A DNA stretch of 64,000 bases from Planctomycetota bacterium (lineage in GTDB: Bacteria; Planctomycetota; UBA8742; UBA2392), in the NCBI GenBank assembly GCA_020638635.1, contig JACKIE010000002.1, forward strand, positions 133,140 to 197,139, written 5' to 3'. The notes below the pieces were generated by a model. That model did no database searches. It had not been told where the DNA came from and saw only the letters and a program-made list of their open reading frames with translations. Numbering within the stretch: position 1 is the stretch's first letter; each line of letters begins with the position of its first letter. Below, piece after piece: positions 26,341-44,265 of the stretch. The position numbers and the translations under genes are program-made.

Positions 26341-28086
26341 TCAGTTGTCTTCGTGGGTTTTCAATCCGTCGCCAGGAGCCGTGAAGATGTACTCGCCCTC
26401 CTCAGGAGTTTCCATACGCAGCAGGGGCAGTTTGTGGTTGACCGATGTCTTTACCCAGCCCCGCGAAACCATGCTCTCCAGGCATTGCATCGCCGCCTGG
26501 AACAGGAACTTCTCCTCCCCGGGTTGACCCAGCTTGCTGATGGAGGAACGCAGGAGCGGCATCAGTTCGTTGATGTTGCGGGCCTGCTTCAGCGCGTTGT
26601 AGACGACTTCATATCCGCCGGCCAAAACCAGCACATCCCCGTCCCGCTCAAGTGCCTTTACAGGAGTGACGCGACCTTGCCATACGTGTGCGACATGCGT
26701 CTCCTTCGCGCCGTCCTCCCGAAGTTTGAAAACATTCTTCCCGTCGATGCGATAGCCGACTTTGCCATCCGAGGAGTGGCTCAGGCGGTGTTGCACCTGC
26801 TTGATGCTGGCCAGATTGAAACCGCCGATGTCCACCTGGCCGATGTGGTCGTCGATGCCGCCATTGCTGAGCCAGCGGAATGCTTCCTCAGGTGACAGGT
26901 TGAGTCCGGAGTTTTCCGCAATCCGTGAGCAATGTTCTTGAAGGTCACTGAAGCAGCCGTTCGCGGAGTACCAGTAATCAGCGAACTTCATGTGTTGGCG
27001 AATTCGCTTCCTCTGTATCGCGTCGTACTGCGACAACAACCAGTCTTTGTCGTGCTCAGCGCGTTCGATTTCCAGGATGGTGAATGCGCAGTGTTGAGCT
27101 CCGCTGTGGGTGAGTGTCAGGCCTGCAGCGAGGATCGGGTCGGCAAAGCCCATGCTTTCGCCGCACAGGAACCAGTTTTCGCCGTAGGCGCGATCGGCCA
27201 GGAACGACCAGTCCTTGGTCGCCCGCACGTTGCCGGACGAGGCCGCGTCTTCCAGCAGTGTCTTGATCGCAGGTTCAAGTGACAGGGCTTCCGCGTAGAG
27301 TTCCGCGCCGGTCTTGCCACTCTCTTTGAAGTACTTCGCGGGGCAGACCAGCCCGACGCTGGTTTCGTCGTCGCTCAGGGCGATGTACCAGATCCAGCCG
27401 AAGGGAACACTGCGAATCTGTACCCGGATGGTGCGCTTTTCGAGGAGTTGGTTGTTCAGGCCCGGTTTCTTCCAGTAGTCCCAGAACGCTACGTTTTGAA
27501 GCAACGTCGGACACTCTATCCGTACGCCCAAGGCCTCCCGCAGCACACCGACGTTGCCGCTGGCGTCGATGTAGTATTTGGCTGTGAGTGTCCGGCCTGT
27601 GTTGGTGTTCAGACCAGTGATCCGGTCGCCATCGCGAAGCACCTTGACGACGCTCGTTTCTTCAAACACATCACAACCCAGCTTTGCGGCGTGCTTCAGC
27701 AGGATTTGGTCGTACTTTGCCCGGTCTACTTGCAGGGCGACGCGCTTGCGCCACCCGCCGAAAGGAACCGGCCGCCGGGTGTCGCCAATTTCCTCCAGTG
27801 GAATGAAGCTGAACACCCATGGGTCGGTGGTCTTGCCCCATGTGTAGGTGGCTCCAAGTTTGATCACGAAATTGGCGGCCTCGATGTCATTCCATACGCC
27901 CATTTCATCGAGGATCGCACCGATGGCGGGAAGCTGGCTTTCTCCAACGTGCTCTCGTGGGAAGCGTGATTTCTCCAGGATCGCTACCTTCAGCGCCGGG
28001 TTGTACTTTTTCAGAAAGGTCCCGGCCGTGCTGCCCCCCGGACCTCCGCCAACAATGACTACGTCGTAGTGTTCTTCTGCCGACAT
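26341..28086 (-). CDS. FAD-dependent halogenase-like oxidoreductase (tryptophan-halogenase family), paralogue 1
   Basis: GxGxxG (VIVGGGPGGS). FPREHVGESQLP..FVIKLGATYTWG resembles the Lys-containing motif of CndH/PltA-type enzymes. FGWIWYIAL is a WxWxIP-like motif with Pro replaced by Ala. GFADPILAAG. Confidence 0.75.
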   Translation of the reverse strand: MSAEEHYDVVIVGGGPGGSTAGTFLKKYNPALKVAILEKSRFPREHVGESQLPAIGAILDEMGVWNDIEAANFVIKLGATYTWGKTTDPWVFSFIPLEEIGDTRRPVPFGGWRKRVALQVDRAKYDQILLKHAAKLGCDVFEETSVVKVLRDGDRITGLNTNTGRTLTAKYYIDASGNVGVLREALGVRIECPTLLQNVAFWDYWKKPGLNNQLLEKRTIRVQIRSVPFGWIWYIALSDDETSVGLVCPAKYFKESGKTGAELYAEALSLEPAIKTLLEDAASSGNVRATKDWSFLADRAYGENWFLCGESMGFADPILAAGLTLTHSGAQHCAFTILEIERAEHDKDWLLSQYDAIQRKRIRQHMKFADYWYSANGCFSDLQEHCSRIAENSGLNLSPEEAFRWLSNGGIDDHIGQVDIGGFNLASIKQVQHRLSHSSDGKVGYRIDGKNVFKLREDGAKETHVAHVWQGRVTPVKALERDGDVLVLAGGYEVVYNALKQARNINELMPLLRSSISKLGQPGEEKFLFQAAMQCLESMVSRGWVKTSVNHKLPLLRMETPEEGEYIFTAPGDGLKTHEDN

Positions 28087-28180
28087 GAGTTGTTCCCCAC
28101 GGTTTGGCCGGAGTGTAGCGGATCAAGGCCGGGAGGGGAGGGCGCGGCCCGGGAAACAACTCGCTGAATTGCCCAGTGCA

Positions 28181-29878
28181 TCACTCCGCAGAACGCAGAA
28201 TCTGGCCTTCCTTGGGCGTCTGCATCCTCAGCGCCGGCTTGCCCCTTTGCTGCGACGTTTTTACCCAGCCGTTTACCACCATCCACTCCAGGCACTCCAG
28301 CGCCGCCTGATGCAGCGCTTTGGCGGCCGGATTGCCGCTGATTGCGCGCTGCAGCGCGTTCATGAAGTCCGCCGCCAGGGGCGAGGTTTGCAGGGCGTCG
28401 AACACCAGCTTGTAACCGCCGATCATGGGCAGCACCTGCTGCTCGCGCTGCCAGGCCGGCACCTTGTGGATGCGCCCTTCCAGCGGCAGAGGCAGATGGG
28501 TCAGCTCCGCACCCTCCATGCGCAGCTTGAAGTGCGTCTTGCCGTCGATGTTGTAGGTGACCGGCCCCTCGCTCTCGTGTCCCATGCGCCACTGCAGCGC
28601 GCGCAGGCCGGAAACGTTCACACCGCCCGTTGAGCCCGCGCCCAGGTCGTCGTCGATGCCGCCGTTGCTCAGCCAGCGGAATGCGGCTTCGGGCGTCATC
28701 TTCAGGCCGGCCTCGGCGGCGATGCGCGCGCAGTTTTCCTCGATGGCCGAAAAGAACCCGTTTCCCGAGTACCAGTAGTCCGCGAACTTGATGTGCTGCC
28801 GGATGCGCTTGAGCTGAATGGTGTCGTAGTGCTTCAGCAGCCAGTCGCGCTCATGCTCGCCGCGTTCGAGCTCCATGATCAGGTACGCGCAGTGCTGCGC
28901 GCAGGTGTGGGTCAGCGCCATGCCGGCGGAAAGAATCGGGTCCGCAAACCCCAGCGCCTCCCCGACCAGGAACCAGTTGCGCCCGTGGCCGCGCTCGGAC
29001 ACGAACGACCAGTCCTTGCGCGCGCGTACCTTGCCATCGGGCGCCGCCTCGGCGAGCAGCCGGTTGACGGATTGCTCAAGCTTTACCGACTCGTGGTACA
29101 GCGCTTCCGGCGACTTGCCGCTTTTTTGGAAGTACTCGGCCGGCGTGACCAGCCCGACGCTGGAGCGGTTCTCGTCCAAGGCGATGTACCAAAGCCAGCC
29201 GTAGGGAAGGCTGCGGATCAGGATGCGGATGGTGCGCGTCTCAAGCAGCGAGCTGTTCAGCCCCGGCTTTTGCCAGTACTCCCAGAACGCCACGTTCTGC
29301 AGGGCCGTGGGCACGTCCACTTTCACGCCCAGGGCACGGCGGATTACGGCCGCGTCGCCGCTGGCATCCACATAGTGTTTGGCGGTCACCACGCGGCCGT
29401 CGTCGAGACGCAACTCGCGGATTTCGTCGTCGGCATGGACCACTTCGCGCACGCCGACGGGCTGAAGCACCTGGCAGCCCAGTTCGGCCGAGTGTCTCAA
29501 CAGTATGTCGTCATAGCTCGCTCGATCGACCTGGAAGGCGACCTTCTGGCGCCAGCCCTCGTAACGGGCGGGGCGCGGTTCGTCGCGGATCTGGTCGTTC
29601 GAGACAAAGCCGAACAGCCAGGGCTCCGTCTGTTTGCCCCAGGTGTAATTGGCGCCCAGCTTGACGATGAAGTTGGCGGCCTCGACTTTGTCCCAGGCGC
29701 CCATGTCGTGCAGTACGCGTCCGACGGGCGGCAGCTGGCTCTCGCCGACGTGCTCGCGCGGGAATGCCTCGCGCTCGATGATCGCCACGGAAAGCGCTGG
29801 CATGTACTTCCTGATCAGCGCGCCGACGGTCGAGCCGCCGGGCCCGCCGCCGACGATGGCCACGTCAAAGTGCAGCAT
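28181..29878 (-). CDS. FAD-dependent halogenase-like oxidoreductase, paralogue 2
   Basis: Collinear with 26341..28086 by eye (about 60% identity). Motifs VAIVGGGPGGS, FIVKLGANYTWG, YGWLWYIAL and GFADPILSAG. Confidence 0.75.
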   Translation of the reverse strand: MLHFDVAIVGGGPGGSTVGALIRKYMPALSVAIIEREAFPREHVGESQLPPVGRVLHDMGAWDKVEAANFIVKLGANYTWGKQTEPWLFGFVSNDQIRDEPRPARYEGWRQKVAFQVDRASYDDILLRHSAELGCQVLQPVGVREVVHADDEIRELRLDDGRVVTAKHYVDASGDAAVIRRALGVKVDVPTALQNVAFWEYWQKPGLNSSLLETRTIRILIRSLPYGWLWYIALDENRSSVGLVTPAEYFQKSGKSPEALYHESVKLEQSVNRLLAEAAPDGKVRARKDWSFVSERGHGRNWFLVGEALGFADPILSAGMALTHTCAQHCAYLIMELERGEHERDWLLKHYDTIQLKRIRQHIKFADYWYSGNGFFSAIEENCARIAAEAGLKMTPEAAFRWLSNGGIDDDLGAGSTGGVNVSGLRALQWRMGHESEGPVTYNIDGKTHFKLRMEGAELTHLPLPLEGRIHKVPAWQREQQVLPMIGGYKLVFDALQTSPLAADFMNALQRAISGNPAAKALHQAALECLEWMVVNGWVKTSQQRGKPALRMQTPKEGQILRSAE

Positions 29879-29939
29879 CTGGTTTCCCCACGTAGAAGCG
29901 CGGACAGTTTAGTGCGGGGCAGCGATCCGTGCAGGGGGA

Positions 29940-31166
29940 TCAGCGCATCTGTTCGGGGCTTTGCTTGGCCCACTCGGCTAGCTGCTTCAGGTAGGCTTTG
30001 TCGAAGGCCTTCAGGTCAGCGCTTATGTGCTGCTTGAACGCGTCCAGTTGCTTGGAGGCCGAGTCCAGCTTGCCGTTCTGCAGTTCCTGCTCGAACTTGC
30101 TGAAGCCCTCTTTGTGGTCACTGTTACGCAGGTAGTAAATGAAAGCCCAGGAGTTCTGGTAAAACTCCGGGTCCACCTCGCCCCACCAGTTCTGGTTCAG
30201 CGTGTCTTCGGCGCCCTTGATTTTCTTCTTCTTCAGCAGCTTGCCGCAGAAGTACAGGCTGTAGTTCACCTCCGGCACCAGCTGCCCCATCTCGAGCTTC
30301 TTGCCGTCCCAGCTGTGCATGCTCCAGTACTCGGCCGTGCCCTCCTTGTACCAGGCGGGCGTGTTCCACAGCTTCTGCGTGACCAGGCCGTCGAACTGGT
30401 GGCGCGCCTCGTGCAGCAGCACCCGGCGTGTGCGGTACCAGTCGTGGAAGTAACTGAGCCGGCACACGCGGCCGTCGAAGAAGCCCTGGGACTTTTTCAT
30501 GTCGTCGCTGAAGCTTTCGATGTCGCTTTCGATCATCGCCACGAAGTCGGCGTTGGTCTTCAGGATGTCCACTTCCAGTGTGATGGCCTTGACCGGGTCG
30601 TACTCCACCCCCGCGTCGGCGCGCCATGCACGCACGGCCTGCTCGAGCAGAGCCGCCAGCTCCGTGGTTTCCTCGGGCTTGAGGCGCGAGGTGATCACGA
30701 ATTCGCGCGTGATGACTTCATGCCAGTCATCGCGGGCGTGGGCCATGAGGGGCTGGCCGGCTTCCAGTTGCGCGATTTCGTCCGCGGTCAGGCGGTAGTC
30801 GTGCACCAGCTTCCAGGCTGATTTCTGCTCAGGCGTGGCGTCCACCCATTCGGTGAGGCGGCGGGTCCTGCCCTTGGCGATCTGCATTGCGTCGTATGAC
30901 TCGTGCCAGCTTTCGCCATCGAGCACGTGGCCGAGGGACTTGTGCGCTGTCTCGTCGGCCGGCGCCAGCTTGATGATCTCGCGATAGAGCCGCAGCTCGC
31001 TCTGGCGCAGCTTCTTTAGCTTGCACCACTTGGCCAGCTTGTGGCGGCCTTCGACGTCGTCGGCTGTAAGGGCGGCCTTCTTGTCGGCTAGCTCTTTGTG
31101 CAGGCTTTCCAGCTCGGCGGCCTGCAGCGGGGCGGCTAGTGATAGAAGAAGCAACAACAAGCGCAT
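29940..31166 (-). CDS. secreted protein with HExxH motif (putative metallopeptidase-like; resembles planctomycetal DUF1570-type proteins)
   Basis: Start trimmed to ATG 31166 (signal peptide MRLLLLLLSLAAPLQA). LLHEARHQFDG contains HEARH. The function is not established. Confidence 0.6.
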   Translation of the reverse strand: MRLLLLLLSLAAPLQAAELESLHKELADKKAALTADDVEGRHKLAKWCKLKKLRQSELRLYREIIKLAPADETAHKSLGHVLDGESWHESYDAMQIAKGRTRRLTEWVDATPEQKSAWKLVHDYRLTADEIAQLEAGQPLMAHARDDWHEVITREFVITSRLKPEETTELAALLEQAVRAWRADAGVEYDPVKAITLEVDILKTNADFVAMIESDIESFSDDMKKSQGFFDGRVCRLSYFHDWYRTRRVLLHEARHQFDGLVTQKLWNTPAWYKEGTAEYWSMHSWDGKKLEMGQLVPEVNYSLYFCGKLLKKKKIKGAEDTLNQNWWGEVDPEFYQNSWAFIYYLRNSDHKEGFSKFEQELQNGKLDSASKQLDAFKQHISADLKAFDKAYLKQLAEWAKQSPEQMR

Positions 31167-31337
31167 GGCGAACCAGGCAGGGGAAGGGCCGGGAGGGACA
31201 GTATAGCAGTTGATGGGGAGGCAGCTTTTCGGCAATTTCAGCGCATTCAACCGTTTCAGGATTTCCTGAAAAACTTGAACGGATTTCTTGTTTTCCACAC
31301 CCACGAAAAGCATGCTCGCCCCCCTACGGGAGAAGGC

Positions 31338-32375
31338 GTGCGGTTCAGCAACGTTCACATTGAATCTGTCGGCTATTTGCTGCCCGATCGTGTCGTGACC
31401 TCACTGGAAATCGAGGACCGGCTGGCCCCCGCCTATGAACGACTGGGGCTGCACCCCGGACGGATCGAATTGATGTCCGGCATCCGCGAACGCCGGCATT
31501 TTGAGCCGGGCACACGCCCCAGCGCGGTTGCAACCAAGGCGGCGGAGTTTGCCCTGCAGCGCGCGGGCATCGATCGCGATCAACTCGGCATCCTGATCTT
31601 CAGCAGCGTGTGCCGCGATTTCATGGAGCCGGCCACGGCCAGCGTGGTGCACGCGAACCTGAAGCTGCCGCTGGGCTGCCAGTGCTTCGACCTGTCCAAC
31701 GCCTGCCTCGGCTTCGCCAACGCCATGATGGTGGCGGCCAACATGATCGAGCTGGGCCAGGTCAAGGCCGCGCTGGTTGTCGCCGGTGAAGACGGCGGGC
31801 CGCTGGTGGAGGCGACCATAAAGCGGCTGAATGAAGACAGCAGCATCGGCCGCAAAGAAAGCAAGCTCAGCTTCGCCAGCCTGACCATCGGCTCAGGCGC
31901 GGCCGCCATGGTGCTGACGCACGCGGACCTGGCAAAACACGACCACAAGCTGCTGAGCGGCGGCATGTTGGTGGATTCCAGCGCCGTGGAGCTGTGCCAG
32001 GGCGGCGTTGTGGAAGGTGCTGCGGGGCCGCTGATGCAGACAGACAGCGAGACCCTGATGCAGGAAGGAGTGAAGCTGGCCACCCGGGTCTGGGCGGAAA
32101 CCAAGGCTGAACTCGGCTGGCAGAACAGCGATGTAGACCGCGTGTTCGCCCACCAGGTGGGCGTGATGCACCGCAAGCTGCTGTTCGAGAAGCTTGAGCT
32201 GGACCCGGCCAAGGATTTCCCGACCGTCGAGACGCTGGGGAACATCGGCAGCGTAAGCCTGCCGATCTCACTCAGCCTCGGCCTCGAGCAGGGCAAGGTG
32301 AACGCCGGCGACAACGTGGCGCTGCTGGGCATCGGCAGCGGCCTGGTGTGCCTGAACATGGGGGTGCGCTGGTGA
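31338..32375 (+). CDS. oleA: OleA-type thiolase (FabH-like 3-oxoacyl-ACP synthase III family)
   Basis: FabH-like fold with active-site FDLSNACLGF. Followed directly by oleB, oleC and oleD. GTG 31338 with RBS GGGAGAAGG is preferred over ATG 31275. Confidence 0.8.
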   Translation: MRFSNVHIESVGYLLPDRVVTSLEIEDRLAPAYERLGLHPGRIELMSGIRERRHFEPGTRPSAVATKAAEFALQRAGIDRDQLGILIFSSVCRDFMEPATASVVHANLKLPLGCQCFDLSNACLGFANAMMVAANMIELGQVKAALVVAGEDGGPLVEATIKRLNEDSSIGRKESKLSFASLTIGSGAAAMVLTHADLAKHDHKLLSGGMLVDSSAVELCQGGVVEGAAGPLMQTDSETLMQEGVKLATRVWAETKAELGWQNSDVDRVFAHQVGVMHRKLLFEKLELDPAKDFPTVETLGNIGSVSLPISLSLGLEQGKVNAGDNVALLGIGSGLVCLNMGVRW

Positions 32376-33394
32376 CCACCACTGAACAGGCGCGCCCCTT
32401 CACGGGCATCTGGGAACGCGAATACCCCTTCGCGTCGAACTGGCTCGACCTCGGCGAGGCGCGGCTGCATTACATCGATGAAGGGAGCGCTGGCTTCCAG
32501 CCGGCATCCGCCTTGGACGTCCCGTCCAAGGCTCGGGGCGTGAGACAGAGGCCAACGCCGAATGCAGGCGGGACGCCTGCGCTCCTGTTCCTGCACGGCA
32601 ACCCGACCTGGAGCTTCTACTGGCGCCACCTGGTCGAGGCCTTCCGGCCCACCAACCGATGCGTCGCCCTGGACCACATGGGCTGCGGCCTCTCCGACAA
32701 GCCCCAGTTCTACCCCTACACCCTGGCCCAGCACATCGAGAACGCCCGCGCGCTGGTCTACAAGCTTGACCTGCGCGACATCGTGCTGTGCGTCCACGAC
32801 TGGGGCGGCGCCATCGGCATGGGCCTGGCTGCGCAGATCCCGGACCGCATCAAAGGCTTCGTGGTGTTCAACACGGCCGCGTTCCCCAGCCGGCGCATGC
32901 CTTTGAGTATTGGCCTGTGCCGCCTACCGGGCTTCGGCGCGTTCGCGATCCGCGGCCTGAATGCTTTCGTGCGCGGTGCACTTGCGCGTTGCGCGAAGAA
33001 GCCGCTGTCAGCCGAAGCCAAGGCCGGCTACCTGGCGCCCTACAGCAACTGGGACGACCGCGTGGCCAACCTGCGCTTCGTGCAGGACATCCCGATGGAC
33101 ACGGGCCACGAGAGCTGGCCGACGCTGCAAGCCGTGGAGGCCGGCCTCGCGCAGTTCAAGCAGCACCCGATGCTGCTGTGCTGGGGCCGCCACGACTTCG
33201 TGTTCAATGACTCGTTCCTGCACGAGTGGCAGCAGCGCTTCCCGCAGGCGGAAACACAGTACTTCGAAAACGCCGGGCACTTCGTGGTGGAGGACGCCCG
33301 CAACGAGATCATAGCGGCCATGAAACGGTTCCTCGCGGGCGAAGAGCAGACCTACACGGACGAGCACCACTCTTCGGTCAACCTGCACGCATGA
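32372..33394 (+). CDS. oleB: OleB-type alpha/beta hydrolase (haloalkane-dehalogenase-like beta-lactone decarboxylase family)
   Basis: FLHGNPTWSFYWRH and VHDWGGAIG (Asp nucleophile). The GTGA overlap with the oleA stop suggests start 32372 (alternative 32348). The N-terminal region contains a REPIN-derived insert. Confidence 0.8.
   Translation: MTTTEQARPFTGIWEREYPFASNWLDLGEARLHYIDEGSAGFQPASALDVPSKARGVRQRPTPNAGGTPALLFLHGNPTWSFYWRHLVEAFRPTNRCVALDHMGCGLSDKPQFYPYTLAQHIENARALVYKLDLRDIVLCVHDWGGAIGMGLAAQIPDRIKGFVVFNTAAFPSRRMPLSIGLCRLPGFGAFAIRGLNAFVRGALARCAKKPLSAEAKAGYLAPYSNWDDRVANLRFVQDIPMDTGHESWPTLQAVEAGLAQFKQHPMLLCWGRHDFVFNDSFLHEWQQRFPQAETQYFENAGHFVVEDARNEIIAAMKRFLAGEEQTYTDEHHSSVNLHA
32483..32585. 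repeat. REPIN/MITE-like palindromic element inside the oleB coding sequence (in frame)
   Basis: GGGAGCGCTGGCTTCCAGCCGGC...GGACGtccCGTCC...GCAGGCGggaCGCCTGCGCTCC. Same family as 39844-39943 and 40188-40289. Translated as GSAGFQPASALDVPSKARGVRQRPTPNAGGTPAL. Confidence 0.7.
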
Positions 33395-33408
33395 GAAAAG
33401 GACACGGC

Positions 33409-33837
33409 ATGAACCGCAAAGAACCGCAAAGGACCGCGAAGAAAGACCTTGGGGATGACTTGCTGCTGAAGGAAGAAGTCTACGCCGTGATCGGCGCAGC
33501 GATCGAGGTGCATAAAGAGTTGGGACACGGCTTTCTGGAAGGCGTGTACGACGAGTGCTTCGGCTACGAGATGGAAGACAGACACGTTCCGCACGTAGCC
33601 CAACCAGAAGTGGAGATTCGGTACAAGCGCAGGCGCTGCAAGAAGAAGTACGTCCCAGATTACCTTTGCTTCGGCGAGATCGTGGTCGAGATCAAAGCAA
33701 TCAAGGTGCCGACAGAAGTCGAGGAAGCCCAGCTGATCAATTATCTACGGGCGACGGGCAAGCCTGTCGGTCTGCTCATGAACTTCGGAGCACGAGGGAA
33801 ACTGGAGTGGAAACGCATCGCACTGACGAAGGCGTAG
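33409..33837 (+). CDS. GxxExxY family protein (PD-(D/E)XK-like)
   Basis: GFLEGVYDE motif and the EIKA..KVPTEVEEAQLINYLRATGKPVGLLMNFG core. Wedged between oleB and oleC. Confidence 0.85.
   Translation: MNRKEPQRTAKKDLGDDLLLKEEVYAVIGAAIEVHKELGHGFLEGVYDECFGYEMEDRHVPHVAQPEVEIRYKRRRCKKKYVPDYLCFGEIVVEIKAIKVPTEVEEAQLINYLRATGKPVGLLMNFGARGKLEWKRIALTKA
33412..33441. repeat. left 30-bp inverted repeat of the GxxExxY cassette
   Basis: AACCGCAAAGAACCGCAAAGGACCGCGAAG, made of three decamer units. It is the reverse complement of 33841-33870 with 29/30 matches. Confidence 0.85.
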
Positions 33838-33840
33838 TTC

Positions 33841-33870
33841 CTTCGCGGTCCTTTGCGGTTCTTAGCGGTT
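33841..33870. repeat. right 30-bp inverted repeat of the GxxExxY cassette
   Basis: CTTCGCGGTCCTTTGCGGTTCTTAGCGGTT. It starts 4 nt after the cassette stop codon and ends 8 nt before the oleC ATG. Confidence 0.85.
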
Positions 33871-33877
33871 AATCAGC

Positions 33878-35647: not shown

Positions 35648-36723
35648 AGGCAGTGGTGACAGGCGGCGCCGGTTTCCTGGGCGCGAAGATTGGTCAGCGT
35701 CTGCTGCAGCGCGGCGACGAAGTAACAATCATGTCCCGCTCCGCAAGCAGGCATTCCGCGCCGCACGCAGGCGCACGTGTGGTTGATGCCGACCTGCGCG
35801 ACGCAGACGACGTCGCCCGCGCGCTCGAAGGTGCCGACGCGGTCTTCCACGCCGCCGCCAAGGCCGGCGTGTGGGGCCCGCGGGCGGAGTACTTCGGCAT
35901 CAACCTGGCCGGCACGCGCAACGTGCTGGCCGCCTGCCACAAGCACGGCGTGCAAGAGCTGGTCTACACCAGCACGCCCAGTGTGGTGTTCGAGCGCGGC
36001 GGGATTGACGGTGGCGACGAAACGCTGCCCTACCCGAAGAAGTTCCTCACCCATTACGCCGAATCCAAGGCTCTGGCCGAGCAGGAAGTGCTGGCCGCCA
36101 ACGGCGTGCACGGCCTGCGCACGGTGGCCCTGCGCCCGCACCTGATCTGGGGCGCGGGCGACCCGCACCTTCTTCCGCGTGTGCTGGAGCGCGCGCGCGA
36201 GGGCAAACTCAAGCAGGTCGGCGACGGCCGCAACCGCGTGGACATCACCCACGTGAACGACGCCACCGACGCCCACCTGCTGGCGCTTGAGCACATCGAG
36301 CGCGCCGCGGGCAAGGCCTACTTCATCAGCAGCGAAACGGTCGAGTTGTGGCCCTGGCTCAATTTCGTGCTGGAGCGTTCGGGAGTCGCGAAACTCAGCG
36401 CGCAGGTCAGCGCGGCCACGGCTTATCGCGCCGGCGCGGTGATGGAGTTCGTCTGGCGCCTGCTGGGTATCGGCAGCGAGCCGCCGATGACGCGCTTTGT
36501 GGCCGAGAACCTGGCGACTTCGCACTGGTTCAGGCTGGATGCAGCTAAGCGCGACCTCGGCTACCAGCCCCGCTGGACGGGCGCAAAAGCGCTGGACGAG
36601 TATTTCGGTAACGGCCCCGCCATCACGGGTGGGGAAACAACCCTGGATAGTGATCTGGGCTCTGACTCCCCCGGCCTGCCGGCCGGGGCTGAGGGAGCGC
36701 TTCAGGAGCAACGCCATGGATAA
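35644..36723 (+). CDS. oleD: OleD-type NAD(P)-dependent reductase (3-beta-HSD/epimerase family)
   Basis: VTGGAGFLG Rossmann motif and YAESK (YxxxK). ATGA overlap with oleC. Confidence 0.85.
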   Translation: MKAVVTGGAGFLGAKIGQRLLQRGDEVTIMSRSASRHSAPHAGARVVDADLRDADDVARALEGADAVFHAAAKAGVWGPRAEYFGINLAGTRNVLAACHKHGVQELVYTSTPSVVFERGGIDGGDETLPYPKKFLTHYAESKALAEQEVLAANGVHGLRTVALRPHLIWGAGDPHLLPRVLERAREGKLKQVGDGRNRVDITHVNDATDAHLLALEHIERAAGKAYFISSETVELWPWLNFVLERSGVAKLSAQVSAATAYRAGAVMEFVWRLLGIGSEPPMTRFVAENLATSHWFRLDAAKRDLGYQPRWTGAKALDEYFGNGPAITGGETTLDSDLGSDSPGLPAGAEGALQEQRHG

Positions 36724-37351
36724 TGTGCTACGCGAACACCTGATGACGTTCGAGACGTTCTTCTCGGCCATCGGCTTCAAGTCGCGGCTGGGCAAGGTGT
36801 GGGGGCTGCTGGCGCTGGCCGGCAAGTCGCTCAGCGCCGCGGACATCGCCAACGAGCTCGACATGAGTGCCGGCTCGGTCAGCGAATGTCTGTCCGAATT
36901 GCGCGAGTGGGGCGCAGTCACCAGCGAATTCTCAAGCGAACACCGCTGTCAGATGCACAGCGCGGTCAGCGACACCATGAGCATCGTGACCACCGTACTG
37001 CGCCGCCGCGAGCAGCTGGCCGTGCAGAACTTCAAGGACAACGCCCGCAGCGCCCTGCAGTACGTGACCGAGCGCTACGGCAGCAACGACGCCCGCGTGC
37101 ACACACTGCAGAGCATCGTGACGACTAGTGAAATTGCCGAAGCCACCATCCAGTTCTTCGTGGCCGCCAGCAGCGCGGTTCCCAAGAACGACGAGTCGCG
37201 CCTGGCCCGCGTGGTCAAGCGCATGGCCGCCATCGGCATGAAAATGCCCGGCGAGATCAACAAGTTCCGCAACGGCCGTCGTAAGACCGGCCAGCTGAAC
37301 GGCAACGCCACCTCGGCGCCTGTGGAAGAAGCGGAGGACGCCCATGTATAG
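36716..37351 (+). CDS. GbsR/MarR-type winged-helix transcriptional regulator
   Basis: ATG 36716 overlaps the oleD stop by 8 nt. KVWGLLALAGKSLSAADIANELDMSAGSVSECLSELREWGAV is HTH-like. Confidence 0.7.
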   Translation: MDNVLREHLMTFETFFSAIGFKSRLGKVWGLLALAGKSLSAADIANELDMSAGSVSECLSELREWGAVTSEFSSEHRCQMHSAVSDTMSIVTTVLRRREQLAVQNFKDNARSALQYVTERYGSNDARVHTLQSIVTTSEIAEATIQFFVAASSAVPKNDESRLARVVKRMAAIGMKMPGEINKFRNGRRKTGQLNGNATSAPVEEAEDAHV

Positions 37352-38579
37352 CCTTCCGCGCGTGGTGATCACCGGCGTCGGCCTGACCGCGCCCAACGGC
37401 AACAACCTGGCCGAGTTCCGGCAAGCTTTGCTGCAGGGCAAGTCGGGCGTGCAGCCCTACGAAATCCGCTATTTCGGCAAAACCCTGGCGGGCATCTGCA
37501 ACTTCGAGGCCACCCGCTACCAGAAGCGCAAGGACCTGCGCCGCGGCACCCGCGCCGGCAGCATCAGCATCTACTGCGCCCACGAGGCGCTGAAAGACGC
37601 GGGCATCGGCTGGGATGGCGTTGACAAGTCAAGGGTCGGCGTATACGTCGGCACCACCGAGCACGGCAACGTCGAGACCGAGACCGAGATCTACGAGGTC
37701 AGCAAGCAGAACTACAACCTCGATTTCTGGACCCACCACCACAACCCGCGCACAGTGGCCAACAACCCGGCCGGCGAGGTGACGCTCAGCCTCGGCATCA
37801 CCGGCCCGGCCTACGCCATTGGTGCGGCCTGCGCGGCCGGCAACCTGGGGGTGATCCACGCCACCCAGATGCTGCAGCTGGGCGAGGTGGACCTGGCGTT
37901 CGGTGGCGGCGTCAGCGAGAGCATTCACACCTTCGGCATCTTCGCCGGCTTCAAGCAGCAGGGCGCGCTCGCGCACCGTGAAGACCCGACCAAGGCTTCG
38001 CGCCCCTTCGACAAGGCCCGCAACGGCATCGTAGTCGCCGAAGGCGGCTGCCTGTACACGCTGGAGCGCCTGGATGACGCGCTCAAGCGCGGCGCGAAAA
38101 TCTACGCCGAGATCGCCGGCTGGCACGTCAACAGCGATGCCAGCGACTACGTGCTGCCGAATTCCGAGCGGCAGATGCAATGTATGCGCGCCGCCATCAA
38201 ACGCGCAGGCATGCAGCCCGGTGACGTTGACATCGTCAACACCCACGCAACCAGCACGCCCAGCGGCGACGAAATGGAAGCCGCGGCCGTCAACGCCGTG
38301 TTCGGTGACTACGACGGCGTGCACGTCAACAACACCAAGAGTTACATCGGCCACGCCATGGGTGCCGCGGGCGCTTTAGAGCTGGCCGGCAACCTGCCCA
38401 GCTTTGAAGACGGCGTGGTGCACCCGACCATCAACATCGATGAGCTGGACCCGGAATGCGCCGTGCGCGGCCTGGTGATCAACCAGCCCAAACAGGCGGG
38501 AGAAGTGAAGACCATCATGAACATGAGCTTCGGCATGCTGGGCATTAACTCAGCGCTGATCGTGAAGAAGTACGAATAG
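37344..38579 (+). CDS. beta-ketoacyl-ACP synthase I/II family (FabF/FabB-like)
   Basis: Cys-His-His triad contexts AIGAACAAGN, NTHATSTPSGD and KSYIGHAMGAAG. Overlaps the regulator stop by 8 nt. Confidence 0.9.
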   Translation: MYSLPRVVITGVGLTAPNGNNLAEFRQALLQGKSGVQPYEIRYFGKTLAGICNFEATRYQKRKDLRRGTRAGSISIYCAHEALKDAGIGWDGVDKSRVGVYVGTTEHGNVETETEIYEVSKQNYNLDFWTHHHNPRTVANNPAGEVTLSLGITGPAYAIGAACAAGNLGVIHATQMLQLGEVDLAFGGGVSESIHTFGIFAGFKQQGALAHREDPTKASRPFDKARNGIVVAEGGCLYTLERLDDALKRGAKIYAEIAGWHVNSDASDYVLPNSERQMQCMRAAIKRAGMQPGDVDIVNTHATSTPSGDEMEAAAVNAVFGDYDGVHVNNTKSYIGHAMGAAGALELAGNLPSFEDGVVHPTINIDELDPECAVRGLVINQPKQAGEVKTIMNMSFGMLGINSALIVKKYE

Positions 38580-38580
38580 A

Positions 38581-38646
38581 GCCCCGGCCAGTTCGCGAAG
38601 CGAACGTGCCGCAGGAACGCACTGCGTTCCGAGGATGGCCGGGGGC
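38581..38646. repeat. composite REP-like palindromic element (intergenic)
   Basis: Outer stem GCCCCGGCC/GGCCGGGGC enclosing GTTCGCgaaGCGAAC and GGAACGCactGCGTTCC. Confidence 0.6.
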
Positions 38647-38695
38647 GAAGGGAACAACAAACAACGCCCGCAAGGGCACAACCAAGGAAGAAGCA

Positions 38696-38959
38696 ATGAC
38701 AGACGAAATGATCAAGCAGGCCATCATCGGGATCATCAACGACATCAACCCCGACGAGGACACCAGTAACATCGACGCGGCCACGCGCCTGCGCGACCAG
38801 CTCGACCTCGACTCGATGGACTTCCTCGACATCGTGATGGAGCTGCGCAAGCGCTACGGCGTGCACGTGCCCGACACGGACTACGAGCACCTCGCCAGCC
38901 TCGACAGCTGCGTGAACTACCTGCGCGACAAGATGGCCGGCAAGGAACTGGTGTCGTAG
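38696..38959 (+). CDS. acyl carrier protein
   Basis: 87 aa. The LDLDSMDFLDIV motif carries the phosphopantetheine Ser. RBS AAGGAAG. Confidence 0.85.
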   Translation: MTDEMIKQAIIGIINDINPDEDTSNIDAATRLRDQLDLDSMDFLDIVMELRKRYGVHVPDTDYEHLASLDSCVNYLRDKMAGKELVS

Positions 38960-38963
38960 TCGC

Positions 38964-39033
38964 CAGTTGTCAGTTGTCGGTTGTCAGCGGCAGCGCTGAG
39001 CCCGGTAAACTGACAACTGATAACCGACAACTG
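38964..39033. repeat. long imperfect hairpin with arms built from heptamer tandem repeats (empty cassette-like)
   Basis: Arms are CAGTTGTCAGTTGTCGGTTGTCAG and CTGACAACTGATAACCGACAACTG. As RNA the 24-bp stem has 1 mismatch and 2 G-U pairs, with a 22-nt loop. Confidence 0.75.
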
Positions 39034-39039
39034 AAAACC

Positions 39040-40605
39040 ATGTCCCACTATGACGCCATCATCATCGGTGCGGGGATGTCCGGCCTGGCGGCCGGCATCC
39101 GTCTGGCCATGTACGACAAGAAGGTTGTCGTGCTGGAGCGTCATTACGTGTGGGGCGGGCTGAACTCGTTCTACCAGTTTCAGGGGCACCAGTTCGACGT
39201 GGGCCTGCACGCTATGACGAATTACGCCCCGCGCGGGGCCAGGGGCCTGCCGCTGACGCGGTTGCTGAAGCAACTGCGCATCCGCTGGGAAGAGCTGGAC
39301 CTGCACCAGCAGGGCCACAGCGCGGTCAGCTTCCCGGGCCTGAAACTGAATTTCAGCAATGACTTCGAGCTGCTGCGCAGCGAAATCGCCCGCGCATTCC
39401 CGGGGCAGATCGACGGCTTTGATGCATTGACGCGTCAAGTGCGTGGCTACAACGAGTTTGACCTCAACGCGCCCACGCTCAACGCCCGCGAGATCGTGGA
39501 GTCGCACACCACCGACCCCGTGCTGGCCGACATGCTGTTCTGCCCGCTGATGTTCTACGGCTCAGCCCGCGAGAACGACATGGACTGGGACCAGTTCGTG
39601 GTGATGTTCAAAAGCATCTTCTTCGAAGGCTTCGCAAGGCCGCAGGCAGGCGTGCGGCATATTTTAAAACTGCTGATTGATCGCTATCGCAGGGCCGGCG
39701 GCGAACTGCGCCTGAAAGCCGGCGTGTCGCGCATCATCACCGACGGCCAACGCGCCACCGGCGTCGAGCTAGACAACGGCGAAACCCTCACGGCCGACAA
39801 CGTGCTGTCGTCAGCGGGACTTGTGGAGACAGGGCGACTGGTAGGGAGCGCCGGCCTCTGGCCGGCAGATGCCGTGGACGTTCCGTCCACGGCGGGCGCG
39901 GACAAAATGTCCGCGCAGCAGGCCGCCGGGACGGCGGCGCTCCGTGGCAAACTCTCCTTCACAGAAACCATAAGCGTGCTGGACAAACCCGCGCGCGATC
40001 TGGGCATCGAAGAGACCATCATCTTCTTCAGCAACACCGAGCGCTTCAACTACGCGCAGCCCAATGACCTGTGCGACACCAGCAGCGGGGTGATCTGCAT
40101 GCCCGGCAACTTCAACCTGCCCCGGCAGCCCAAAGACCACCTCGTGCGCATCACCAACATCGCCAACTACGACAAGTGGGCGGCGCTGGGGAGCGCCGGC
40201 CTCCGGCCGGCACATGCCGTGGACGTCACGTCCACGGCTGACGCGCACAGGATGTCCGCGTCGAAAGCCGGCCAGAGGCCGGCGCTCCCGTACTACGAAG
40301 CCAAGCAGCACTGGTATGCGCGTTCCTGCGACGACGTGCTGAGCCACATCCCGGATTTCCGGCCGTACGTGTCGCTAGTGGACATGTTCACCCCTCGCAC
40401 GATACGGCACTACACCGGCCACGAAGGGGGCGCCGTGTACGGCAGCCCGCTCAAGAAGCGCACCGGCGAGAGCGGCGTGGAAGGCCTCTACATCATCGGC
40501 ACCGACCAGGGCTTTTTAGGCATCATCGGCGCCATGCTGAGCGGCATCAGCATGGCCAACCGCTGGGTACTTCAACGCGACAACGCAGCGGTGGAGACAA
40601 CATGA
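39040..40605 (+). CDS. NAD(P)/FAD-dependent oxidoreductase, phytoene-desaturase (CrtI)-like, with two REPIN inserts
   Basis: [20 protein letters not shown] dinucleotide-binding motif. The C-terminal [17 protein letters not shown] region is typical of the amine-oxidase/CrtI fold. Confidence 0.8.
39844..39943. repeat. REPIN/MITE-like element in CDS (in frame), copy 1
   Basis: GGGAGCGCCGGCCtctGGCCGGC..GTGGACGttcCGTCCAC..GCGCGGACAaaaTGTCCGCGC..CGGCGGCGCTCC. Translated as [33 protein letters not shown]. Confidence 0.75.
40188..40289. repeat. REPIN/MITE-like element in CDS (in frame), copy 2
   Basis: GGGAGCGCCGGCCTCCGGCCGGC..GTGGACGtcaCGTCCAC..GCCGGCCAGAGGCCGGCGCTCCC. It is 102 nt, or 34 codons. 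Translated as [33 protein letters not shown]. Confidence 0.75.
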
Positions 40606-42116
40606 CGACTGATCAGCAACAACAGGGATTCAACCTCAAGGCCGAGGGCAAACGCGTGCTGCGCGGCTCTTCGGGCGGGCGCTTGCAGCAGAAAGCCAAC
40701 CCCGTCGAGAAGGCCAAGGGCGAATACGACGTCATCGTGATCGGTTCCGGCCTGGCCGGCCTTACCGGCGCCAACGTGATGGCAACACAGGGTTACCGCG
40801 TCTGCCTGCTGGAGCAGCACTACAACTACGGCGGGCTCGCCACCTGGTTCAAACGGCCGGGCGGGCACATCTTCGACATCTCCCTGCACGGCTTCCCGGT
40901 CGGCATGGTGAAGTCCATGCGCCGCTATTGGTCGAAAGAGATCGCCGACAGCATCGTGAAGCTCGAAAGCATCAAGTTCGACAACCCGCAGTTCAGCTTC
41001 GAAACCGAGTTCACCCGCGACGACTACACCAACAAGGTCGTGCAGGCCTTCAACCTCGACCGCGCGCACGTCGAAAGCTTCTACAACTACCTGCGCAAGA
41101 TGGAGTATTACAACAACGACGGCACGACCACCGGCGAAATGCTCGAACGCTTCTTCCCCGGCCGTAACGACGTGCACCGCGCGTTCATGGAGCCGATCAC
41201 CTACGCCAACGGCAGCACGCTCGCCGAGCCCGCCATTACCTACGGCATCGTGTTCAGCAACTTCATGAGTAAAGGCGTCTTCACCTTCAGCGGCGGCACG
41301 GACCAGCTGATCATGAAGATGCGCAAGATTCTCGCTGCCAATGGCGTGGACATGTTCAGCGGCGCCCAGGTCGAGCGCGTGCTGGTGAAAGACGGCCGCG
41401 TGGCCGGCGTCCGCGTCAACGGCCGCGAGATCAAGGCCCGCAGCGTGCTCAGCAACGCCAACATCAAGTCCACGGTGTTGAAGCTGGTGGGGGAAGAGAA
41501 CCTCAAGCCCGACTTCATTGAGCAAACCAGGGCCGTGCGCCTGAGCGGCAGTAGCTGCCAGGTCTACATCGGCATCAAGCAGGGCGAGGAGATCCCTTTC
41601 ATCACGGACCTGCTGTTTTGCAGCACAGCCGAGCGCTTCACCAGCGAAGAGCTGTGCGACCTGCGCACGAAAAGCCGCACCTTCAGCTTCTATTACCCCA
41701 AGACACGGCCGCACCTGCCGAACGCGGGCTACACAATCGTCAGCAGCAACAACGCGCGCTGGCAGGATTGGCAGGGGCTGGATGAGGTCGAGTACGAGCG
41801 CGAAAAGAATGCGCTGATCGAGCGCACGCTGGATCACCTGGAAAAGTACATCCCGGGCGTGCGCGAGAAGATTGACCACGTCGAGGCCAGCACGCCGCGC
41901 ACCTTCAACTTCTATACGCAGCAGATGCAGGGGGCCAGCTTCGGCACCAAGTTCGAAGGCCTTGACGTGTCAATGAAGCTGAGCGAGCACGTGCCCGGCC
42001 TGTACCACGCGGGCAGCGTCGGCATCATCATGTCCGGCTGGCTCGGCACCGTGAACTACGGCGTGATCACCGCCAACAAGATGGCCGAATACCTGCACGT
42101 GGCGAAGGCGAAGTGA
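40602..42116 (+). CDS. NAD(P)/FAD-dependent oxidoreductase, phytoene-desaturase (CrtI/CrtD)-like
   Basis: [20 protein letters not shown] and [11 protein letters not shown] motifs. ATGA overlap with the upstream paralogous-fold gene. Confidence 0.8.
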
Positions 42117-42143
42117 TGCGGGCGCCCCGCCCGCGGCAGCCCT

Positions 42144-43406
42144 ATGAGTGACGCCCTCGAACAAGTGAAAGCCCGCATTCCGCACCGGGAGCCGTTCCTG
42201 TTCGTGGACCGCATCCTCGAGCAGGGGCAAGGCCGCATAGTCACCGAAAGAATTGTGCGCGCCGACGAGCCCCAATTCCAAGGCCACTATCCCGGCAGCC
42301 CACTGATGCCCGGCGTGCTGCTATGCGAAGCCTGCTTCCAGACCGGCGCCATGCTGTTGAGGAGCGCAGGCGCCTTGGCCCGTAGCGCAGGCTCCCAGCC
42401 TGCACAGGCCGTGGGCGCCCCGCCCACGGCACCCCCAGAATCAGCTTTCGCTCCAATCGACCCCCGAGTCATGAAACGCCATCGAGGCTACCTTCCGCAC
42501 TGGGAGCGCGAGCACGCAACCTACTTCGTAACCTTCCGGCTGGCGGATTCGCTGCCGGCCGATGCCCGCAAGCGCATTGAGGACCAGCGCTACGACATCG
42601 TAAAGACCGCCGAACACCTGAACCGGCCGCTGACGGATACCGAGCGTGAACGGCTGGATCAGCTCTATTCAGTCACCTTCGATGAACTGCTGAACGTCGG
42701 TCACGGAGCATGCCACCTGGCGAACGCCGACTGCGCGGCCGTCGTCGCTGAGACGCTCACGAAGTGGGACGGCGAACGGTATGCGCTGTACGCCTGGTGC
42801 GTGATGCCGAACCATGTGCATGCAGTGTTTCGGCCGTTTGCGGGGCAGGCGCTTGGCGAAATTCTCCATTCGTGGAAGTCGTTTACGGCCAAGGCGTGTA
42901 ACAAGCTGCTCGGCCGCACGGGTGAATTCTGGCAGCGGGAGTCGTTTGACCGCTTGATCCGCGACCGTGAGGAGTTTGACAAACGCGTGCGCTACACGGT
43001 TGAGAATCCGGCTGCGGCGGGCCTGGTGGGCTGGAAGTGGGTTGGTGGGAGTGCCGTGGACGGGGCGTCCACGGCCGGTGCAGGCGAGGCGCCTGCGCTA
43101 CGGGGTGCAGGCGAGACGCCTGCGCTCCCGACTGCGGGTGAGGCGCCCGCATCACCAACTGCTGCGGGCGAGGCGCTCGCATCACCAACTGCTGCGGGCG
43201 AGGTGCCCGCATCACGGCGCAAGCCGGTGCTTACTCGCATCCTGGAGGCTAAGTTCCGGGGCATGGTGGTGCCGGGGGACGTCCTGCGCGTTGAAGTTGA
43301 GCAGGAAGAAAAAATGGGTGACGCCTTCGTCATGAACGGCAAAGTGTCCTGCGCGGGCAAGAACGTCCTGCGCGTGAAGTTCATCGTGGCGATGATCGAA
43401 CTGTAG
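42144..43406 (+). CDS. FabZ/FabA-like hot-dog dehydratase interrupted in frame by a REP-RAYT element (420-codon continuous ORF)
   Basis: Residues 1-72 ([40 protein letters not shown]) plus residues 358-420 ([21 protein letters not shown]..) make a full-length FabZ. Residues 73-357 are mobile-element derived. Confidence 0.8.
42360..43214 (+). mobile_element. REP-associated tyrosine transposase (RAYT, IS200-like Y1) unit with inverted REP pairs
   Basis: Internal ATG at 42471. Motifs RGYLPHWE and [15 protein letters not shown] motif is NHVHAV. The Tyr context is RYTVENP. Left REPs at 42361-42405 are the inverse of right REPs at 43078-43129 (GGAGCGCAGGCG..GTAGCGCAGGC..GCCTGCAC). Confidence 0.8.
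43131..43217 (+). repeat. 3 x 30-nt tandem repeat of hairpin units (GCTGCGGGCGAGGCGCYCGCATCACCAACT)
   Basis: Read directly from the sequence. Translated in frame as ([10 protein letters not shown])-like decapeptides at the junction back into fabZ. Confidence 0.8.
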
Positions 43407-43428
43407 GGGCGGCCCGCGGGGAACAACA

Positions 43429-44265
43429 ATGGCACTGGTGAACACGGATTTCCTTGACCTGCGCAGCAAGAACGTCGTCGTCATCGGCGCGGCGAACAAG
43501 AAGTCCGTGGCCTGGATCACTGCCCTCACGCTGGAAGAAGCCGGCGCGCGCGTCACCCACATCGTGCGCGACGAAGAGCGCAAGGCCGAAGTCGCCCAGC
43601 TCATCGACAAACAGCGCGGCCTGCACGGGGGCGGCATCAAGGAAGTGTTCACCTGCAACGTCGAGTCGCAGGAAGAAATCGACGCGGTCGCCAAGGCGGT
43701 GGGGGAAGCGCGCGGGCCGATCCACGGCCTGGTGCACAGCATCGCGTTTGCCAACTATTCCGAGGGCATGAAACCCTTCCACGAAACCAACCGCGAAGAC
43801 TTCCTGCAGGCCGTGAACATCAGCGCCTTCAGCCTGGTGGCCCTGGCGCGCGCCTTCAAGCCCTACCTCGACGACTCCGCCGCCGTGGTCACCATCGGTA
43901 TCAGCACCACGCGCATGGCCGCGGAAAACTACGGCTACATGGCGCCGATCAAGGCCGCGCTGCACTCCAGCGTGGTGTTCCTGGCCAAGAGCTTCAGCGC
44001 CGACACCAAAATCCGCTTCAACGCCGTGTGCCCCGGCCTGCTGAAAACCAGCGCCAGTGCGGGCATCCCCGGCTATCTCGACAGCTACCTGTACGCCGAG
44101 CAGGCGACCCTGCGCAAGCAGGCCGTGAGCACGCAGGAGGTGGCGAACGCGGTTGCGTTCCTGCTCAGCCCGCGCAGCAGCGGCATCAACGCGAATGAGC
44201 TGGTAATCGACGCCGGCATGGGCGTGAACTATTTCGACAAGTCGATCATCGAGAAGATGAAGTAG
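43429..44265 (+). CDS. enoyl-ACP reductase, FabI-like SDR
   Basis: [54 protein letters not shown] matches the FabI Tyr/Lys layout. Confidence 0.85.

Follow-up and report, generated by a model that had tools for sequence, protein, structure and literature searches.

Planctomycetes often contain the polyolefin n-C31:9, and their fatty acids are without polyunsaturated chains (PMC6995999, PMC3327967, PMC7534041). C31:9 arises from two 16:4n-3 chains by way of OleABCD, and in Shewanella these chains are supplied by the Pfa synthase (PMC4882568). Among the closest described arrangements are the linked pfa and ole genes (pfaDABC-oleABCD-pfaE of Geobacter bemidjiensis, and pfa plus ole of Shewanella), in which a dedicated synthase is physically or functionally linked to the ole genes and polyunsaturated C16 chains are turned into C31:9 (PMC4882568, PMC3098273). 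Only two planctomycetes carried pfa-like clusters in a 2011 survey (PMC3098273). Here we analyzed a stretch of 64,000 nucleotides from a Planctomycetota bacterium (GenBank assembly GCA_020638635.1, contig JACKIE010000002.1, positions 133,140 to 197,139), referred to below as the window, in which oleABCD is continued on the same strand by a fatty acid synthase (FAS)-like set of discrete enzymes together with two flavoenzymes of the CrtI fold, named Crt1 and Crt2. We propose, with about even confidence, that this region is one biosynthetic unit, that is, a dedicated type II line of acyl carrier protein (ACP)-bound chains coupled to OleABCD, the likeliest product of which would be the polyunsaturated chains for n-C31:9. 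Sukovich and co-workers are said to have found, in 2010, ole genes in about 2% of genomes, and Planctomyces maris and Opitutaceae TAV2 were reportedly among the C31:9 producers in the same work.

A second related system is the hypothetical extended type II FAS (FASII) proposed for Desulfotalea psychrophila and Kuenenia stuttgartiensis. D. psychrophila contains C31:8 and C31:9 and has no pfa genes (Rattray et al. 2009, PMC2649909). Its FASII genes are clustered with phytoene-dehydrogenase-like genes, two of which (DP2405 and DP2406) are adjacent, and a new anaerobic route to polyunsaturated fatty acids was proposed from this arrangement (PMC2649909). In the Desulfotalea and Kuenenia clusters there are, in addition, genes for radical SAM enzymes, further FabF paralogues and a coenzyme A (CoA)-ligase-like gene, and a link to ole was not drawn. 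A demonstration of the proposed route never followed: phytoene was not desaturated by the Kuenenia homologues, which a review of 2026 continues to regard as hypothetical (PMC4790861, PMC13459092). Our literature search for a described cluster of ole, FAS and CrtI-like genes returned nothing beyond the 2009 work. The statement of the first-pass annotation that the combination is not a described pathway therefore holds for the literature searched, with the qualification that a closely similar hypothesis, in which FASII and phytoene-dehydrogenase-like enzymes of Desulfotalea supply the precursor of C31:8 and C31:9, already exists (PMC2649909).

Gene organization of the locus

Genes of the window were annotated from the open reading frame (ORF) listing with Pfam and NCBIfam models, and NCBI's own gene calls agree with the resulting map. 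The gene content and plus-strand order given by the first-pass annotation were borne out. The genes from oleA to the enoyl reductase are as follows (positions are those of the window; KAS, ketoacyl-ACP synthase).

31338-32375, plus strand: oleA (NF006720/PRK09258)
32372-33394, plus strand: oleB (Abhydrolase_1, haloalkane-dehalogenase-like models)
33409-33837, with inverted repeats to 33873, plus strand: GxxExxY/PD-(D/E)XK_3 gene (PF13366, TIGR04256)
33878-35647, plus strand: oleC (PRK09274)
35644-36723, plus strand: oleD (OleD equivalogs as best matches; 3Beta_HSD/Epimerase in Pfam)
36716-37351, plus strand: winged helix-turn-helix (HTH) regulator, family uncertain (weak matches)
37344-38579, plus strand: FabF-like KAS (ketoacyl-synt N and C domains)
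38696-38959, plus strand: ACP (PP-binding)
39040-40605, plus strand: Crt1, CrtI-fold FAD enzyme (Amino_oxidase, NAD_binding_8)
40602-42116, plus strand: Crt2, second CrtI-fold FAD enzyme (amine-oxidase/CrtI-like)
42144-43406, plus strand: FabZ chimera of 420 amino acids (FabZ model in two stretches, plus a RAYT-like domain)
43429-44265, plus strand: FabI-type enoyl-ACP reductase (adh_short_C2)

Five junctions overlap by 4 to 8 nucleotides, namely oleA/oleB (GTGA), oleC/oleD (4 nt), oleD/regulator (8 nt), regulator/KAS (8 nt) and Crt1/Crt2 (4 nt), one more than had been counted before. A promoter and terminator scan gave no promoters, and terminators at chance level.

The oleABCD genes

The four ole genes lie on one strand (31338-36723), and the sole interruption is the 0.46-kb GxxExxY unit. 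OleA scored 418 bits against NF006720/PRK09258 (cut-off 285) and aligned over its full length with the OleA structures of Xanthomonas campestris (3ROW and others) at 221 bits, compared with about 90 bits for FabH. Its catalytic residues are kept (Glu of EP(A)TAS, Cys of NACL, His of HQV and Asn of GNIG), and its start was read from the sequence as the GTG at 31338 in the GVG frame. OleB matched Abhydrolase_1 with 95 bits and, among the NCBIfam models, haloalkane dehalogenases best (162 bits); the HDWGG nucleophile motif is present. OleC passed PRK09274 (609 bits, cut-off 478); of the two narrower equivalogs for olefin beta-lactone synthetase, one gave 546 bits (cut-off 900) and the other 463 bits (cut-off 850). 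For OleD the OleD equivalogs were the best matches, at 347 and 336 bits, under cut-offs of 580. Because the identities of the parts and the gene order agree, the Ole pathway appears to be the only reasonable reading of these genes. OleB is predicted to be of the beta-lactone decarboxylase type, OleC a beta-lactone synthetase and OleD an NAD(P)H-dependent 2-alkyl-3-oxoalkanoate reductase.

Compared with OleABCD of X. campestris and Shewanella oneidensis, the same four enzyme families are found in the same order, and OleA corresponds end to end. Three differences can be seen. First, the operon continues here into a regulator and the FAS-like set with its two flavoenzymes. Secondly, OleC and OleD fall under the NCBI cut-offs of the Xanthomonas and Shewanella equivalogs. 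Thirdly, oleB and oleC hold in-frame insertions that resemble repetitive extragenic palindromic (REP) elements.

The private FAS-like set

The KAS scored 317 bits against the fabF model (cut-off 494) and has the Cys (AACAAG) and the two His motifs (HATST and GHAMGAAG). The ACP carries the serine motif LDLDSMD and scores under the ACP equivalog cut-offs. FabZ reached 96 bits against its equivalog model (cut-off 155), with the His and Glu residues kept. FabI scored 193 bits to adh_short_C2, and the FabI equivalogs gave at most 176 bits against cut-offs of at least 299; the Y-x6-K motif is present as YGYMAPIK. Since the scores of KAS, FabZ and FabI all lie under the thresholds set for the housekeeping equivalogs, these genes would constitute a second, specialised set of paralogues and not the housekeeping enzymes. 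The term 'private set' used in the first-pass annotation fits these scores. The KAS is 61-91% identical across phyla and is the best conserved gene of the cassette, by which we mean KAS, ACP, Crt1, Crt2, FabZ and FabI.

In terms of activities the cassette and the pfa-ole clusters are comparable: ketosynthase, ACP, ketoreductase, dehydratase, enoyl reductase, phosphopantetheinyl transferase (PPTase) and two double-bond-positioning activities, which in the cassette would be those of Crt1 and Crt2. However, the cassette consists of discrete type II proteins, whereas Pfa proteins are giant and multidomain, and the CrtI-fold pair stands where Pfa has its FabA-like dehydratase/isomerase domains. The KAS gave 72 bits to the PfaA model (cut-off 1010), and no large multidomain PfaA-D ORFs, with tandem ACPs and FabA-like dehydratase domains, are present in the window. 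The likeness between the two systems would be one of function, not of homology.

Crt1 and Crt2

Crt1 and Crt2 are 22% identical over their full length and are distant paralogues; Crt2 is 55-89% identical across phyla. Crt1 matches NAD_binding_8 and Amino_oxidase, and the GxGxxG motif of the FAD-binding Rossmann fold is invariant. The best NCBIfam model for both was carotenoid isomerase (Crt1, 92 bits; Crt2, 117 bits; cut-off 587), and TIGR02734 gave 61 and 85 bits, below its cut-off of 238; for no carotenoid family did either enzyme come near the cut-off. That an isomerase and not a desaturase model came out best leans weakly towards an isomerase-type activity for both enzymes. A sequence search of the PDB found no close solved relative of either, with CrtI and CrtD matching at E values of about 1e-8. 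The AlphaFold model of Crt1 (pLDDT 84) had CrtD (4REP) and CrtI (4DGK) as its top Foldseek matches, at 16% identity and E values of 1e-21 to 1e-22. The label 'CrtI-like' was thus right at the level of the fold; resting on a structural model, it would tell the fold only and nothing about the substrate. No crtB or crtE gene is nearby, and the neighbours are FAS and ole genes. Crt1 is proposed to be an acyl-ACP double-bond isomerase or desaturase.

Flavin-dependent desaturation or allylic isomerisation of acyl chains has precedents in UfaD, a CrtI-family enzyme of furan fatty acid synthesis, in FabX of Helicobacter and in the polyenoic acid isomerase of Propionibacterium acnes. These enzymes, which are likened to Crt1 and Crt2 by description only, act singly and neither in pairs nor within a KAS-ACP-FabZ-FabI cassette.

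A parallel with the ladderane genes of anammox bacteria had also been drawn. Alignment of Crt1 and Crt2 with kuste3336 and kuste3607 (first 400 amino acids of the references) gave identities of 21-26% across some 280-320 amino acids, which is similar to their identity with Pantoea CrtI. Since they are no closer to the Kuenenia proteins than to CrtI, orthology with the ladderane genes was rejected, and the parallel stands at the level of the superfamily.

Conservation of the cassette and its linkage to ole genes

To follow the cassette across genomes, one genome per species was scanned with a Crt1 alignment. At least 594 related stretches were found, of which the best 80 loci were kept (L-numbers below), and every protein of the window was mapped onto these. 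An ole gene was counted as linked when it had at least 40% identity and lay within 10 kb; many contigs end early. Members of Planctomycetota, Nitrospirales, Nitrospinota, Dehalococcoidia/Chloroflexota and Opitutales share the order KAS-ACP-Crt1-Crt2-(FabG)-FabZ-FabI. An ole gene lies near the cassette in 33 of the 80 loci, in at least five arrangements:

oleABCD ahead of the cassette and on its strand: the close clade L002-L008, and L014 of Nitrospirales
oleABCD in divergent orientation: L020
oleCD ahead of the cassette and oleA behind it, the latter on the opposite strand: L012, L022 and L044
oleA alone, immediately before KAS: Dehalococcoidia
oleA-oleB after fabI: Opitutaceae, including the cultured Horticoccus sp.

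The oleA-like genes of the distant loci scored 432-452 bits and are full members of the same OleA-type model. The cassettes of Nitrospirales, Dehalococcoidia and Nitrospinota include a FabG-type ketoreductase, placed after Crt2 and before FabZ, and in six loci of Dehalococcoidia an Sfp-type PPTase follows FabI, in the manner of pfaE behind the pfa genes.

Because the linkage is kept in several gene orders across at least five phylum-level groups, and so has survived repeated rearrangement, it is strong evidence for functional coupling of ole and the cassette. The view that ole and a FAS-like set with two CrtI-fold enzymes form a conserved unit is upheld by this survey, in which the neighbourhood proved to be conserved among related genomes and beyond.

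In Dehalococcoidia/Chloroflexota (L023, L033, L039, L047, L055 and L060) an oleA-family gene (452 bits) precedes the cassette, and no oleB, oleC or oleD was found within 10 kb. These cassettes hold FabG, and L039 has in addition a CMD-family gene. Instead of an olefin, these loci might yield a ketone or some other lipid. L028, L040, L059 and L077 are candidate Crt1-only loci.

Proposed pathway

In the pathway that we propose, the private KAS, FabZ and FabI would extend the chain on the private ACP, with ketoreductase, malonyl transferase and PPTase borrowed from elsewhere in the genome. At defined cycles Crt1 and Crt2 would act on the ACP-bound enoyl or acyl intermediate, so that a double bond is kept or moved (for example from trans-2 to cis-3, or from trans-2 to cis-2) and not reduced; they would thereby fill the role of the two FabA-like dehydratase/isomerase domains of Pfa synthases. 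The unsaturated acyl chain, most likely polyunsaturated and of the 16:4 type, would be handed over directly from the ACP to OleA for condensation, and OleD, OleC and OleB would convert the condensed product to a long polyolefin of the n-C31:9 type.

Several points weigh against this proposal. Genes for FabG, FabD and a PPTase are missing from the cluster in the window, as are any for a thioesterase or CoA ligase that could pass the chain to OleA, and the OleA enzymes studied so far use acyl-CoA. The fabZ gene is interrupted by a foreign domain of 200 amino acids, though purifying selection acts on its two halves as well as on the frame. Any substrate named for Crt1 and Crt2, as for all members of their families, is so far putative. 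Among cultured bacteria, no C31:9 producer without pfa was linked to the cassette in this analysis. DP2405 and DP2406 of Desulfotalea would be at most candidate orthologues of Crt1 and Crt2: the 120 matches listed in Crt1 homologue searches with deltaproteobacterial and Fuerstiella seeds, mostly metagenomic proteins with Fuerstiella marisgermanici as the one named species, included neither D. psychrophila nor Gimesia maris. A pfa cluster may also be present elsewhere in the genome, outside the window. Finally, the cassette is found without nearby ole genes in all three Nitrospinota loci, and many Planctomycetaceae and Opitutales have at the locus only KAS-ACP-Crt1 (for example L058, L061, L067 and L076), as has Fuerstiella marisgermanici (CP017641.1; L096, 8288-11380). 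Because of these cassettes without ole and these reduced units, Ole may not be the sole outlet. In genomes with a lone KAS-ACP-Crt1 unit, Crt2, FabZ and FabI must be either elsewhere or absent. Downstream of such units we observed a UvrA-like gene (L058) or, in Fuerstiella, an enolase-superfamily gene (MR_MLE) and, further on, complex I genes.

Alternative explanations

The alternative that survives best, although we consider it unlikely, is that the cassette is a general or alternative FAS module, for instance an oxygen-independent monounsaturated route that replaces FabA/FabB. The nearness of ole would then reflect shared lipid metabolism, and the olefins would be mono- to tri-unsaturated. 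The complete reductive cycle, including FabI, would suit such a module, and so would the cassettes that have no nearby ole in Nitrospinota and at many other loci. A flavoenzyme with a comparable task exists in FabX of Helicobacter, which creates the cis-3 double bond of monounsaturated fatty acids. On the other hand, ole is a pathway of reportedly about 2% of genomes, and without some specific coupling one would hardly expect to meet it beside the cassette in 33 of 80 loci and in five arrangements; all of the enzymes are divergent paralogues under the housekeeping cut-offs, and wherever the cassette is full the two different flavoenzymes are always paired.

Alternatively, Crt1 and Crt2 may act after condensation and, as CrtI does with phytoene, desaturate, isomerise or saturate the long Ole product or the beta-lactone or acid intermediates, while KAS, ACP, FabZ and FabI make a saturated precursor. 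We regard this as somewhat less probable still. CrtI-family enzymes prefer long lipophilic chains, and the nearest structures to the model are indeed desaturases of C40 carotenoid hydrocarbons. However, the KAS-ACP-Crt1 unit is fixed even where ole or the remaining cassette is missing (Fuerstiella, Opitutales), and the Nitrospinota cassettes are without ole; it is because of this fixed unit and these cassettes that chemistry on an ACP-bound chain is favoured. Moreover, methylene-interrupted double bonds, as in C31:9, are not expected from stepwise CrtI-type desaturation of a monoene.

There is only a slight chance that the cassette makes some other specialised lipid, with ole as one of several neighbours; a conjugated polyene, a ladderane-type precursor or a membrane fatty acid of an unusual kind would be examples. 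Clusters of FASII with phytoene-desaturase-like genes have been proposed for anammox ladderanes (PMC2649909, PMC4790861), and in Dehalococcoidia only an oleA-like gene is linked, without oleBCD, so that ketones or other products might follow. Against it, Crt1 and Crt2 are not orthologues of kuste3336 and kuste3607, the cassette is without radical SAM genes, and the enoyl reductase, which is always present, argues against a fully conjugated polyene.

The weakest alternative, in which two halogenase-like enzymes act on the ACP-bound precursor or on the olefin and a halogenated lipid results, can hardly be credited, for although two Trp_halogenase-domain genes with GxGxxG, WxWxI and a conserved Lys are found on the other strand at a distance of 1.4 kb from the promoter region of oleA, such genes are absent beside HExxH/oleA in the close relatives L002 and L005 and from all 80 cassette loci.

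Neighbouring genes

On the minus strand, divergent from oleA as had been noted before, lie the halogenase-like pair and a gene for a secreted HExxH protein; a further pair of genes is convergent with fabI.

26341-28086 and 28181-29878, minus strand: two halogenase-like genes (Trp_halogenase/CmlS-like; Trp_halogenase)
ORF 29940-31358, probable start 31166, minus strand: secreted HExxH protein (HEARH motif)
44330-44737 and 44866-45282, minus strand: two tandem OsmC/Ohr-like peroxiredoxin genes (PF02566 in both)

The halogenase-like proteins scored 124 and 107 bits to Trp_halogenase (above cut-off) and 203 and 163 bits to CmlS (cut-off 900). They have GGGPGG, GWxWYIA and FxVKLG, with the Lys kept, and in both copies the Pro of WxWxIP is replaced by Ala. 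Relatives that are 43-49% identical, on metagenome contigs L082-L090, adjoin LacI regulators, N_methyl (pseudopilin-like) proteins and TPR-sulfotransferases, and downstream of the genes in the window lie large secreted surface proteins, whose domains are Laminin_G_3, He_PIG, GEVED and CARDB. The neighbours of the relatives hint that the role of the family may be unrelated to halogenation of lipids or natural products. A partner of the polyketide synthase or nonribosomal peptide synthetase type was rejected, the large downstream ORFs being the surface proteins and not synthases. Since the linkage of the pair to the cluster is not conserved, a halogenated precursor or olefin, as suggested in the first-pass annotation, was given up, and the halogenase-like genes are probably not part of the system.

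The HExxH protein had no Pfam match and only a weak one (22.7 bits) to flagellinolysin HExxH, and its N terminus resembles a signal peptide. Its start and that of oleA are divergent, with 171 nt between them. The gene stands beside oleA in L002, L003 and L005 (45-53% identity) and is confined to the close clade.

The GxxExxY gene matched PF13366 (121 bits) and TIGR04256 (123 bits). At either end of the unit is a 36-nt inverted repeat (33409-33444 and 33838-33873, 92% complementary) built of GAACCGCAAAG units, and one of the repeat arms encodes the gene's own N terminus. Because among the relatives this site is occupied only in the window and in L002, it behaves as a small mobile cassette outside the pathway. 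We count this cassette, the HExxH gene and the halogenase-like pair as neighbours, not components.

The regulator was earlier called GbsR/MarR-like. The HTH assignment was retained and the family was not, as only weak matches, at or just under cut-off, were found to MarR_2, HTH_IclR, ArsR and CudC; its conservation does not reach beyond the close clade L002-L008. The OsmC/Ohr-like pair is kept at its place in L002-L005 and not in distant loci; it is at most a hint of peroxidation-prone lipids and of a link to the pathway. Within the 80-nt spacer between ACP and Crt1 there is, at 38964-39038, an inverted repeat of GTTGTCAG-like units (arms 38966-38987 and 39017-39038, 91% complementary).

In-frame REP-like and RAYT-like insertions

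The gene first described as FabZ-like does encode FabZ, but as a chimera. It is one continuous ORF of 420 amino acids, in which a domain resembling a REP-associated tyrosine transposase (RAYT; Y1_Tnp), at about 42456-43043, is inserted in frame after the central hotdog helix. The chimera scored 67.6 bits to the REP-associated tyrosine transposase model, and the HUH and Tyr motifs are kept. The insert is flanked by 59-nt inverted REP-like arms (42379-42437 and 43046-43104, 88% complementary). The same FabZ::RAYT chimera is present in L002 (13228-14388), L003 (11845-13044), L004 (6984-8087) and L005 (14826-15989), that is, in five genomes with the window. The ratio of nonsynonymous to synonymous substitution rates was 0.10-0.16 in the RAYT part, compared with 0.03-0.13 in the two FabZ parts and 0.24-0.98 in the linkers (0.64-0.98 in nine of the ten comparisons). 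The embedded domain is thus under purifying selection, and the linkers evolve nearly neutrally. In 1.84 billion representative proteins only one further cluster, at 50% identity, of FabZ chimeras was found.

REP-like elements are inserted in frame at these positions of the plus-strand genes:

32473-32532: oleB
35131-35185: oleC
39844-39943 and 40189-40288: Crt1
42371-42437 and 43046-43104: fabZ

Their hairpins have the form GCCGTGGACG-N3-CGTCCACGGC and GCGCAGGCG-N3-CGCCTGCGC. All five copies of GCCGTGGACG-N3-CGTCCACGGC in the 64-kb window lie inside oleB, oleC, Crt1 and fabZ, where 0.01 would be expected. In the predicted structure of Crt1 its REP-like insertions are the only disordered loops. 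Among close relatives the elements are variably present, at the same loop positions. They are reminiscent of the Rickettsia palindromic elements in ORFs.

The search of the same protein set with the RAYT part showed that many of the best matches are long proteins in which the domain is internal. Pfam analysis of ten such proteins named eight hosts, with domains split by the RAYT-like insert:

alanyl-tRNA synthetase: P0362, P0364 and P0367
valyl-tRNA synthetase: P0371
DNA methylases: P0365 and P0366
thiamine pyrophosphate enzyme and chorismate-binding enzyme: P0376 and P0382

It suggests a mobile-element family that may survive by in-frame insertion into conserved or essential genes, an intein-like niche, although gene-calling artefacts are possible.

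Significance for polyolefin synthesis

The hydrocarbon n-C31:9 is widespread in bacteria and is a chemotaxonomic marker of planctomycetes, and the sole demonstrated supply of its precursor is the Pfa megasynthase. The cassette is a concrete candidate, of about eight genes, for the missing supply, and it revives the hypothesis of 2009. More tentatively, and with a probability that we would put on the doubtful side, the cassette may be a third way to methylene-interrupted polyunsaturated acyl chains, distinct from both desaturase/elongase systems and Pfa: a type II, flavoenzyme-assisted and probably oxygen-independent polyunsaturated fatty acid synthase, and the source of C31:9 in planctomycetes, Opitutales and other bacteria that are without pfa. 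If Crt1 and Crt2 position double bonds on ACP-bound chains, this would be new flavoenzyme chemistry, and polyunsaturated lipids and polyolefins could be made with a tool that is both small and transferable. Even with a more ordinary product, the cassette would represent a large, uncharacterised family of lipid gene clusters, with its related stretches numbering at least 594.

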